From a phage, in the sequence record PZ445524.1: a stretch of DNA of 64,000 nucleotides; one strand, written 5' to 3'. The notes beneath the pieces were generated by a model. It searched no databases and was not told where the DNA came from. It saw only the letters and a list, made by a program, of their open reading frames with translations. Positions within the stretch are counted from its first letter, which is position 1, and each line of letters starts with the position of its first letter. Position numbers and translations under genes: made by a program. Below, piece by piece: positions 21,698 through 24,753 of this stretch.

Positions 21698-22168
21698 CTA
21701 GCGATAAAAACCAAAATAACGATTAGCTTCAATAATCTTTCTTTCTTCTTCGGACATTCTCCAACGTAGTCCAACATCAAAATGAGCCCAGACCATCTTA
21801 ACAAATGCGTTTATATCTTTAATATCTTCAATAATGAATGTTTTACTTTTAAAAGGCTGACTCGCTAATTTAACTTTATCATCTTCAAACAGGTCAAAAA
21901 GACCATATTCATGAGCTCTTTTATAGCCTTTAATAGTTAAAGCTTCAGAAGAAGAAAACGGTGAATCAGTATCCTGCAAAATATCTTCAGTATGCTTTAT
22001 AATTAGAATAACATTTTCTGGATATTTTCTTTCTTTTATATCTTCAATTAAAAAATCCGGATTTTCTGCTAAAGGAATAATTAATGAGCATTTTTTACCA
22101 AGAGTATTTACTGATTTACCTTCTTTAGACATGAATTCTACTGAATAATGTTTTGCTACTTCAATCAT
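21698..22168 (-). CDS. hypothetical protein (156 aa)
   Basis: ORF track. Confidence 0.6.
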
Positions 22169-22321: not shown

Positions 22322-22525
22322 TCATGATTTATCCCCATAGATGTCTCTCATCAATTTAAGCGCTGAGCGCTCTAATTTCTTTTCTTTCTCAGCACTAATC
22401 ATTGATTTCATCCATTCTTCCGATTCGTTCTGCATTTCTTTATTTGCTTGTTCAACCCAACCATCATCAATATACATTGAGTTTGGTCTATTGAACCATT
22501 CAAGAATTTTCTTCAGAACTTTCAT
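22322..22525 (-). CDS. hypothetical protein (67 aa)
   Basis: ORF track. Confidence 0.5.
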
Positions 22526-22997
22526 TTGTTTTACCTAAAACAATAGTAGGATTATCATCAAATTCATGAATTTTGAGTAAATTTGGATTTAAACTATTCC
22601 ATACAGAAGAAATAAAGTATGATAAAGCATCTTCACTCACAATTATAAACTTATTTCCTTTATCTATTTTCCAGTCATATACTGAATCGTACGAATAAAA
22701 AGATAAAGGATTACCATTATATTGTTCTGCGCTAACATTAATGTATTCGGATTTAGTAAATGCTTCAATTGCTCTAAACGGACTATTTGGCACAGTTTCA
22801 ATAATTCCGATCTTTTTAAGTTTTATTTCAACATCTTCTGGAACTGGCATTGAAACGAAATTTTCTACGAGATACATAGGGTTACAATAACCCTTATCAA
22901 TCACTACGGCTACAGTAATTGGAACATCTTTAGCAAACGACATGCTATTACTGCTAATATACATTTCAAACAAAATCGCTTCCATAATTTTCCTCAA
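22500..22997 (-). CDS. hypothetical protein (165 aa)
   Basis: ORF track. Confidence 0.6.
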
Positions 22998-23326
22998 TCA
23001 CAAGATGTAGATGAACAACTAGAATCACAAGAACTTCCACATGAATCGCCCGTCCATACATGAACAGGAACATTAGTATCATATGAATCAGAACTAGACT
23101 GCGCATTAGATGATGTAGTAGGTGTTGACCAGCGCCGAGGATTTTTATAATATTCTTGGGCTTCTTCATAAGTCATAGTAACTGCTTCTACTGTTCCATC
23201 TCCCATATAAACATATTCAACTACAGTTAAAGGAAGGTAGTCATTTGAAATAGGAACTACACCTTCCCCAGGAGTCGTAGAGAAAAAATCCGTAAAGAAA
23301 CTTTTAAACCAATTAAAGATAAACAT
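22994..23326 (-). CDS. hypothetical protein with Ser/Cys-rich C-terminal tail (110 aa)
   Basis: ORF track; tail [18 protein letters not shown]. Confidence 0.6.
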
Positions 23327-23532
23327 TACAAAAAGCCTCTTTTGAATTCAACTTGTTTATCGCCATAATCATATCGAATCTCTGCATTAAATTCGACAGA
23401 ACCATCGGCGTACATCATAAATGAATGCACAACAACTTCTGTAGACCATGGTTGTAGTTCATATTTCTTCATTACATGCCGTGAAATGATAATATCTAAA
23501 TCTTCATTCGGTTTAATCCAACGATTTAACAT
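23326..23532 (-). CDS. hypothetical protein (68 aa)
   Basis: ORF track. Confidence 0.5.
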   Translation of the reverse strand: MLNRWIKPNEDLDIIISRHVMKKYELQPWSTEVVVHSFMMYADGSVEFNAEIRYDYGDKQVEFKRGFL

Positions 23533-23598
23533 AGCGCTCTCCTCTATAAGATAATTCTATTATACCATACTCATTTTGGAAAGTAAACCGTTTAAATG

Positions 23599-23622
23599 AA
23601 AAAAGGACTCCCGAAGGAGTCC
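23599..23622 (-). terminator. rho-independent terminator downstream of soc
   Basis: minus strand GGACUCC-UUCG-GGAGUCC followed by UUUUUU. Confidence 0.65.
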
Positions 23623-23630
23623 TTGAATTA

Positions 23631-23867
23631 TTAACCACCTATTTCTGTTGGCGTAAACATTGCAGCATTCTTAGTTTTCCAGTCAGCTGCATCAGAAACT
23701 ACAGTAGAATATGCCGCCTTTTCAGAAGGAAAGGTCTGATAATGAGAATCTGCAATACGATGCTCGTTAGAATAGATTTCAAATGGAACAGAAACTTCCA
23801 TACCTTTAACTTCTTTACCTTCACCTGCTGGATGAGTAAAGGTCTTTATATTAACGAAACCACCCAT
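23631..23867 (-). CDS. soc: small outer capsid protein Soc
   Basis: 78 aa; HYQTFPSEKAAYSTV block recalled from Soc; late promoter TATAAATA and AAGGAG SD upstream. Confidence 0.8.
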   Translation of the reverse strand: MGGFVNIKTFTHPAGEGKEVKGMEVSVPFEIYSNEHRIADSHYQTFPSEKAAYSTVVSDAADWKTKNAAMFTPTEIGG

Positions 23868-23898: not shown

Positions 23899-23906
23899 TA
23901 TTTATA
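23899..23906 (-). promoter_or_regulatory. late promoter TATAAATA (gp55-dependent) for soc
   Basis: exact TATAAATA on minus strand about 30 nt upstream of soc ATG; overlaps stop codon of the HNH gene. Confidence 0.7.
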
Positions 23907-24753
23907 AACCATTTTCAAATCTCTTTATCATGTTTATATAATTTTCGTCAGGATAACCTAGGCTAACTGCTAGCTTTCTAAAATTGACATATTTAGGTTT
24001 GTTGTTATTAATCCATAATTCTCTAAGCTCTTTTTCATAATTCCATTTAAGTTGATTTCTGCGTGCAATTTTGCTTAAAGTTTTTCCTTTAGCTTTTAAA
24101 GCTTTTTCAGATGACTGTTTTAATTTTTGAATATTTAAAACTTCTTCTATAGATAAATTATTTTCCTTTGAATATCTTATGCAAAAATCTTTTACTATGG
24201 CTATTAGGCAATTTTTGTGAGTACCTAAAATTTCTGGATTATTTTCTTCAACTAAAATTCCCCAATACCTTCGATAGCGAGGCATATCCCTTGAAATCCA
24301 GTCATTATACCAAAAATCAAAGTTGGAATACATGAAAGATTTTCTTTTACGAAGAGTATCTTGGTTTATCCATTGCTCACGTTTATCAGCCCATAACTTA
24401 ATAGTAAAGTCTTTCTCTAAGTCAGAAAGCTTCTTAAATTGTGAGCTATTTACTGAGGTCATTCTCTGGAATGCATTCAGCAATCCAAATCTTCCAGTTG
24501 AACATAAGAGATAGTGAACATATATGTGTTGATATATTGGGAGATATACTCTATTCCAAGGATATATTTTAAAATCACTATACTCAGGAAATGCACATTT
24601 AGGAAGTATATGATGGGCTTCTGTTTTAGATTTAATGTGAGTGTTTAACTTATACTTATCTATAATTTTTAAATACTCATCTAAAAGTTCCCATTGCGGG
24701 AACTTTTCTTTAAGAGCAGATTTGAAATTAATATCCATTATCTTGACGTTCAA
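23902..24753 (-). CDS. free-standing HNH homing endonuclease (283 aa)
   Basis: HNH-like motif EAHHILPKCAFPEY similar to MobA/MobD-type motifs; basic C-terminal region; between soc and 56. Confidence 0.7.
   Translation of the reverse strand: MNVKIMDINFKSALKEKFPQWELLDEYLKIIDKYKLNTHIKSKTEAHHILPKCAFPEYSDFKIYPWNRVYLPIYQHIYVHYLLCSTGRFGLLNAFQRMTSVNSSQFKKLSDLEKDFTIKLWADKREQWINQDTLRKRKSFMYSNFDFWYNDWISRDMPRYRRYWGILVEENNPEILGTHKNCLIAIVKDFCIRYSKENNLSIEEVLNIQKLKQSSEKALKAKGKTLSKIARRNQLKWNYEKELRELWINNNKPKYVNFRKLAVSLGYPDENYINMIKRFENGL

Follow-up and report, generated by a model that had tools for sequence, protein, structure and literature searches.

The mrh.1 locus and its protein family

The stretch of phage DNA analyzed here (64,000 nucleotides, sequence record PZ445524.1; hereafter the window) carries on its minus strand a small gene that the preliminary description had reported as a 110-residue open reading frame with a Ser/Cys-rich end. 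The ORF listing reproduced its coordinates, length and terminal residues (Table 1). The frame begins with ATG, and its TGA stop at 22994-22996 is counted within the coordinates. By sequence comparison it is the orthologue of T4 mrh.1 and a genuine translated early gene. A nucleotide search with the ORF retrieved 502 phage records at a minimum of 80% identity, nearly all of them Tequatrovirus, and the matches in the T4-related records RB14 and T2 carry the annotation mrh.1. At the protein level, residues 3-110 align with profile positions 1-107 of Pfam DUF7206 (E = 6e-27, 94.8 bits, cut-off 25.6), and PHROGs assigns the protein to phrog_2031 (E = 1.4e-33). The window protein is 95-97% identical over its full length to T4 Mrh.1 (NP_049642, UniProt P20706) and close relatives, and the neighbors soc, mrh.2 and mrh and the four-Cys tail are the same as in T4. 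It differs from T4 Mrh.1 in counting 110 instead of 113 residues, with one NTQ unit fewer in the central linker, and it carries Arg64 where relatives have Trp.

Profile searches yielded 76 cluster representatives of the Mrh.1 family, and translated searches placed it in more than 750 phage records of several genera, with hosts that include Escherichia, Shigella, Klebsiella, Salmonella, Yersinia, Citrobacter, Enterobacter, Serratia, Erwinia and Edwardsiella. An exhaustive search, covering 1.84 billion representatives, brought in only a few further members together with a repeat protein (P0080) that we discarded as spurious. In the literature searched, mrh.1 and DUF7206 were absent from the main texts, data being found in supplements only, and we found no discussion of the Mrh.1 protein or its tail. 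The gene as such is already catalogued, and the modest new lead lies in the tail motif and its portability, as described below.

The gene order soc–mrh.2–mrh.1–(mrh)–srh–modA.4–modA.3–modA.2–modB was kept in all related loci fetched, including distant ones. The order of ORFs in the window agrees with the T4 annotation and with at least 20 related loci, and synteny holds across genera. The gene 3' of mrh.1 varies by genus, being mrh in some and srh in others. Upstream, the mrh.2 stop and the mrh.1 start overlap in the sequence TAATG at 23324-23328. For phage fPS-90, a predicted early promoter and a terminator are annotated at places equivalent to those of the promoter-like and terminator-like elements in the window.

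Table 1. Features of the mrh.1 locus, in window coordinates
Feature	Position	Strand	Remarks
mrh (T4_MRH family)	22500..22985	-	Downstream gene; GAGGA ribosome-binding site at 22991-22995 overlaps the mrh.1 stop
mrh.1 CDS	22994..23326	-	110 aa plus TGA stop; orthologue of T4 mrh.1 (NP_049642); DUF7206, PHROG 2031
Conserved C-terminal island, residues 87-110	22997..23068	-	Predicted disordered
Cys109 codon	23000..23002	-	Invariant penultimate residue, followed by C-terminal Asp110 (22997-22999)
Cys104 codon	23015..23017	-	Group-specific in alignment A3; by hand alignment may match the first invariant Cys
Cys100 codon	23027..23029	-	Invariant family-wide in alignment A3
Cys96 codon	23039..23041	-	Tequatrovirus group only; Ser/Tyr in other genera
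Variable Ser/Thr/Asn/Gln-rich linker, residues 62-90	23057..23143	-	Predicted disordered; site of Tequatrovirus length differences
Predicted beta-hairpin, residues 34-52	23171..23227	-	Invariant E-Y-V-Y-M-G-D-G-x-x-E-x-V motif; pLDDT 76-85, best-predicted part
N-terminal island	23252..23317	-	Amphipathic helix W-F/L-K-x-F/L-F (residues 4-15), then P-G-E-G-V-V-P (residues 19-25)
mrh.2	23326..23532	-	68 aa, PHROG 1873; always directly upstream of mrh.1, overlapping in relatives; candidate partner
Shine-Dalgarno-like AAGAGG	23336..23341	-	9 nt upstream of the mrh.1 ATG, within the end of mrh.2
Early-promoter-like site	23559..23587	-	TTTACT-17-TATAAT, extended -10 TG; upstream of mrh.2
Intrinsic-terminator-like hairpin	23603..23624	-	After soc; sets the start of the mrh.2-mrh.1-mrh unit

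Several neighbors of mrh.1 deserve mention in their own right. The window holds two T4_MRH paralogues in one early block, modA.3 (21698-22168, minus strand) and mrh; some other genera have one copy only. The site occupied in T4 by the GIY-YIG endonuclease gene segF, flanked by soc and gene 56, contains here a 283-residue ORF (23902-24753, minus strand) that had no Pfam match and matched a PHROG annotated as 'homing endonuclease' (PHROG 655, E = 2e-33) as well as an HNH endonuclease PHROG (E = 5e-10). This is a different mobile endonuclease at the segF site. The window Soc (23631-23867, minus strand) is of another type than the Soc of some close Tequatrovirus relatives: in phmmer comparisons with loci L003-L008, E was about 1e-20 for two loci and 1e-45 to 1e-52 for others, even though the genes on either side hardly differ. 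The genus thus appears to have mosaic soc alleles. Finally, Mrh.2 contains an invariant, hairpin-like motif, HSFMM-x-x-D-x-S-x-EFN, that resembles the hairpin motif of Mrh.1. We rejected homology of the two proteins via a common M-x-DG-S/T-V-E hairpin (hhalign probability 0.3%), and the resemblance is probably one between small structural elements rather than a sign of shared ancestry.

The preliminary description had spoken of an early protein, and this is borne out for the T4 gene, mrh.1 RNA being classed as early in the supplement of PMC9697503. Among the shotgun proteomics data of that supplement, Mrh.2 and Mrh are listed as detected and Mrh.1 as undetected, which can be attributed to the sizes of its tryptic peptides (8, 53, 4 and 48 residues). 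In the T4 data of the CRISPRi-ART knock-down screen, mrh.1 is given as 'Semi-Fit' (score 0.79, p = 0.069), and mrh.2, mrh and soc are all given as 'Not Fit'. This hints at a contribution of mrh.1 to fitness, with a borderline phenotype.

Composition, length and selection of the C-terminal tail

In the window, the Mrh.1 tail stands out by its composition. The richest 20-residue stretch of the protein contains 12 Ser and Cys, four of them Cys, which is the top value among the 234 ORFs of at least 50 residues in all reading frames. From the window frequencies (Ser 6.7%, Cys 1.3%), the probability of finding four or more Cys in 20 residues is 1.3e-4. The Ser/Cys composition is hence beyond chance, and the tail was rightly called unusual. 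The accompanying claim of a repetitive nucleotide sequence holds in one respect: there is an exact 10-nt direct repeat, AATCACAAGA, at 22996-23005 and 23023-23032, which reads TCT TGT GAT T on the coding strand and covers two Ser-Cys-Asp units. Beyond that the claim fell away, as Tandem Repeats Finder reported no tandem repeat at the tail DNA.

Low-complexity composition and a direct repeat are what would be expected if the tail were a neutral, slippage-prone stretch, or if the ORF were not a gene at all. The length of the tail speaks against this. A query of 82 nt covering the tail matched 479 records, and all 60 that we sampled across the ranking were single ungapped 82-nt matches. Furthermore, about 20 independent Tequatrovirus sequences showed one 20-residue form of the tail, ending in [SG]CSSTSCD. 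The length polymorphism that the preliminary description had suggested for the tail was thus not seen in these samples and is found in the central linker instead, where an NTQ/NAQ unit and one Thr make up the range of 110 to 113 residues in Tequatrovirus Mrh.1. With a blank Tandem Repeats Finder result and an invariant tail length, we excluded an origin of the tail by tandem repetition or slippage.

Selection on the tail was apparent from the JS98/RB69-like group, in which the tail codons showed pS 0.50 and pN 0.006 (pN/pS 0.013); for the remainder of Mrh.1, pN/pS was 0.31-0.42. The tail codons vary synonymously (TCN/AGY, TGT/TGC, GAT/GAC, TAT/TAC) and the encoded peptide remains unchanged, as expected for a translated frame, on which the preliminary description had made its reading depend. 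By these measures, the tail is the most constrained part of Mrh.1 and a real, selected feature rather than noise. Together with conservation of the family in its more than 750 phage records, this purifying selection leaves a negligible probability to a neutral stretch or a non-gene, a reading that we consider refuted at the sequence level.

Conservation might also act on the nucleotides rather than on the peptide, for example through RNA structure or the ribosome-binding site of the next gene. The mrh.1 TGA and the adjoining GGA indeed form the GAGGA ribosome-binding site of mrh, and the last Asp codon was GAT in 14 of 14 compared sequences. However, the tail has diverged at synonymous sites as much as the rest of the gene, with non-synonymous change almost nil, a combination incompatible with a cause that is non-coding or lies purely at the nucleotide level. 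In addition, the peptide is kept though the downstream gene changes between mrh and srh, and the tail occurs in unrelated genomic contexts. A nucleotide-level element would thus be a very improbable cause, and the sequence comparisons largely refute it.

Two kinds of unusual mrh.1 copies were seen. A 164-residue mosaic form (P0003; L023 1501-1995; L028 269-763, the latter g027c of Yersinia phage fPS-90) joins T4-type residues 1-86 to a Dhakavirus-like segment, TMEEIIRQPEKAGNVG...IDTAPIITATAVSSW, and a T4-type four-Cys tail, which looks like inter-genus recombination inside a small gene. Frameshifted copies occur in phage ERS-1 (P0006) and at L008 2095-2428; in ERS-1 the break follows residue 59, at a point that corresponds to five consecutive A in the window. 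They represent either occasional gene loss or sequencing error, and their presence in a few records suggests that mrh.1 is dispensable under some conditions.

The tail motif, the predicted fold and tails on other proteins

Across the family, the tail follows the motif [Y/C]-D-S-[G/S]...S-C-D-S-[S/G]-x(1-6)-C-D-COOH. The preliminary description had named absence of the tail in all relatives as an argument against its reading; the homology search found a family in which 74 of the 76 representatives terminate in C[DG]-S-[SG]-x(1-6)-C-[DN]-COOH. The final residue is Asp in 75 of 76, and the tail aspartates are not invariant, since SCG and terminal CN variants exist among the representatives. In alignment A3, which comprises 51 family sequences, only eleven columns are invariant (F15, P25, Y40, G42, D43, G44, E47, V49, S99, C100 and C109), with D101, S102, S108 and D110 conserved at 90% or more. 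A scan of about 2,100 ORFs with the tail as a regular expression matched the target gene only.

Most family members have exactly two Cys in the whole protein, both within the tail; the T4 group has four, and the two additional Cys of the Tequatrovirus group stand where other genera have Tyr or Ser. The last two Cys are 5 to 11 positions apart across the family, with Ser and Gly between them. This variable distance and the nature of the intervening residues fit a flexible arm. Cys spacing in the tail differs from canonical metal-site spacing, and as regards a Cys4 zinc module or a metallothionein-like tail, we found only two Cys conserved family-wide, no CxxC and a tail predicted to be disordered. 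That only two of the four Cys are family-wide argues against a classical Cys4 site and again fits a flexible arm with two thiols.

Mrh.1 is a small acidic protein in which conservation is concentrated in three islands, the N-terminus, the hairpin motif and the tail. Two AlphaFold2 runs with 51-sequence alignments gave a mean pLDDT of 59-60. For the window protein, the model contained a helix at residues 4-15, a hairpin at 34-40/46-52, a second helix at 53-61 and an unstructured stretch from 62 to 110; for a distant member, it showed the hairpin again together with a longer helix in the linker, and the tail was disordered here too. Mrh.1 is accordingly predicted to be mostly disordered, tail included. 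By hydropathy analysis, the N-terminal 11-mer is amphipathic. We excluded a transmembrane anchor; membrane-spanning segments usually reach a Kyte-Doolittle mean of about 1.6 or higher, and the top 19-residue mean was 0.84 in Mrh.1 and 0.98 in a relative. The only match of a PDB sequence search, the unrelated major capsid protein 6ojn, was marginal (E = 0.011) and was treated as spurious. A BFVD fold search with the low-confidence Mrh.1 model retrieved family members only, and an NCBIfam search with Mrh.1 gave nothing significant. Mrh.1 and three relatives had no match at E ≤ 1 in PADLOC-DB, a collection of defense and not of counter-defense proteins.

A profile built from the C-terminal ~50 residues of the family retrieved small proteins that end in ...SYDSG..SCDSG-SSSS-CD and have N-termini unrelated to Mrh.1. 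Whole-database E-values for these tail-only relatives were marginal, from 7.5e-3 to about 6, and Pfam DUF7206 covers just their C-terminal halves. One of them (P0085, 58 residues) comes from the T4-like Citrobacter phage Ci1, where its gene adjoins dda. A family of 84-85 residues with a CxxC..H..C N-terminus occurs in two Salmonella phages, PKM.Hi.22.6 and PKM.Lu.22.1; the region around it, with genes for a sigma factor, an exonuclease and a ligase, is related to that of phage 7-11. A protein of 77 residues has a ribbon-like CxC..CxxC N-terminus, and one of 66 residues is encoded on a contig that also carries genes for SNF2 and DUF927 proteins. Among the N-termini of tail-bearing proteins, two are thus Cys-knuckle or zinc-ribbon-like, and one has a His run. 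A query with the tail-bearing protein P0092 for copies in bacterial genomes found none. As far as sequence comparison can tell, other enterobacterial phages carry the same tail motif on small proteins unrelated to Mrh.1, and we consider the motif portable.

On a 7-11-like podophage contig resembling Salmonella phage PKM.Hi.22.6 (L031 3910-4164), the 84-residue CxxC..H..C protein ends in ...SYDSGSSSCDSGSSSSCD, and its gene begins on the last base of a 100-residue ORF located after the DNA ligase gene. A Klebsiella pneumoniae contig (DAGLCI010000080.1; L033 1-182) contains a partial bacterial ORF with the His run HNQHHHH and the tail ...SSSSSCDSGSSSCCD; it lies beside genes for a TerB-like protein, DUF3927 and HsdR of a type I restriction system, possibly on a mobile island.

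Possible roles of the tail and comparison with known systems

The preliminary description had suggested that the tail could bind metal or be modified; its reading is supported in part, in that the tail is selected and kept in relatives. We tentatively propose that Mrh.1 uses its tail as a binding arm. In this proposal, the tail would be a flexible arm with two thiols and several carboxylates, which may either chelate a metal ion or bind a partner at a metal or cysteine site. The predicted hairpin and the N-terminal helix might dock Mrh.1 onto that partner, for which a host factor and the co-translated Mrh.2 are candidates, and Mrh.1 would thereby take part in the early host takeover encoded by the neighboring mod, srh and mrh genes. 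Our confidence that the tail is a Cys/Asp arm for a metal or a partner thiol is low; homology searches gave no significant match that ties the Mrh.1 tail to metal or thiol chemistry. For the explanation as a whole, i.e., an mrh.1 orthologue with a conserved metal- or partner-binding tail that docks through hairpin and helix, we estimate a probability of roughly 0.4.

The main rival to the arm is a tail that works without metal or redox chemistry, as a C-terminal linear motif for docking or as a degradation or targeting tag, with Cys kept only for shape or hydrogen bonding. Position at the exact C-terminus, predicted disorder and portability across unrelated N-terminal modules from different phage lineages would all agree with this, such properties being typical of short linear motifs and tags, and the almost invariant terminal Asp suggests recognition of a free C-terminus. 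However, Cys is rare in proteins of the window, yet two are invariant in the tail, and changes at further positions in the T4 group gave Cys in place of Tyr or Ser. Both observations point to side-chain chemistry. Furthermore, we know of no Escherichia coli protease or adaptor tag that resembles the tail. A docking peptide or tag of this kind hence seems to us doubtful, albeit a serious contender.

Given the occurrence on unrelated proteins, we may also speculate that the tail is a C-terminal 'warhead' or tag that is exchanged horizontally between differing small early proteins of unrelated lytic Enterobacterales phages, and that is either covalently modified or captures a metal or a reactive cysteine of one conserved host factor. 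This reading would cover T4-like, 7-11-like and other phages and, if true, would describe a previously undescribed class of host-takeover or counter-defense peptide; we consider it a long shot. T4 is the reference phage, yet its mrh.1 has carried no functional assignment since it was sequenced. With the strongest selection on the tail, a two-Cys motif and its recurrence elsewhere, an 'unknown ORF' becomes a testable object. Should the tail prove to target a conserved host factor, phage host takeover would gain a new short peptide tool; if the tail has no such target, mrh.1 would be an ordinary accessory gene.

A longer shot still is that a host or phage enzyme modifies the tail covalently, either as an acceptor of a cofactor or nucleotide or in the manner of a ribosomal peptide core, with Ser/Cys dehydration, cyclization or crosslinks. 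A C-terminus rich in Ser, Cys and Tyr resembles precursor cores, and two known families come into view here. FxLD lanthipeptide precursors (TIGR04363) share a Ser/Cys-rich C-terminal stretch with Mrh.1 and matched residues 92-106 weakly (E = 0.033), with 14.2 bits compared with a cut-off of 30. Similarly, the YxzE-like proteins of Pfam PF25184 (Bacillus subtilis yxzE), labeled 'putative bacteriocin', are small and Ser-rich, and their profile scores with the C-terminal half of tail-bearing proteins, reaching 34.6 bits for P0092 and 20.7 bits for the DUF7206 member P0051 at a cut-off of 40. However, every one of these profile matches lies under its curated cut-off and on low-complexity sequence, and the window Mrh.1 itself gives no PF25184 match. 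The YxzE bacteriocin label is a BAGEL prediction from genome context only (PMC1538908), and the yxzE gene has been reported in the sigma-W regulon. In Mrh.1, moreover, there is no recognizable leader peptide or cleavage site, and among the conserved neighbors soc, mrh.2, mrh, srh, modA.2-4 and modB we found no gene for a modifying enzyme, a maturase-like protein or a transporter, which sets mrh.1 apart from lanthipeptide precursors.

For the binding arm that we prefer, two further comparisons can be drawn. Phytochelatin-type peptides, (Glu-Cys)n, bind metals through dyads of thiol and carboxylate, and the Mrh.1 tail likewise repeats Cys-Asp or Tyr-Asp dyads that are split by small residues. 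It differs from them in having only two or three dyads, in being ribosome-made with an alpha-linked Cys-Asp order, and in that its metal binding is putative. The C-terminal Cys pairs of the Escherichia coli ribonucleotide reductase NrdA (Cys754/Cys759) and of the mercuric reductase MerA sit on flexible arms that shuttle reducing equivalents or a metal ion. NrdA and MerA are large enzymes whose arm serves their own active site, whereas Mrh.1 has no catalytic domain and no sequence similarity to them; what the Mrh.1 tail has in common with these arms is a pair of Cys a few residues apart in a disordered C-terminal tail.
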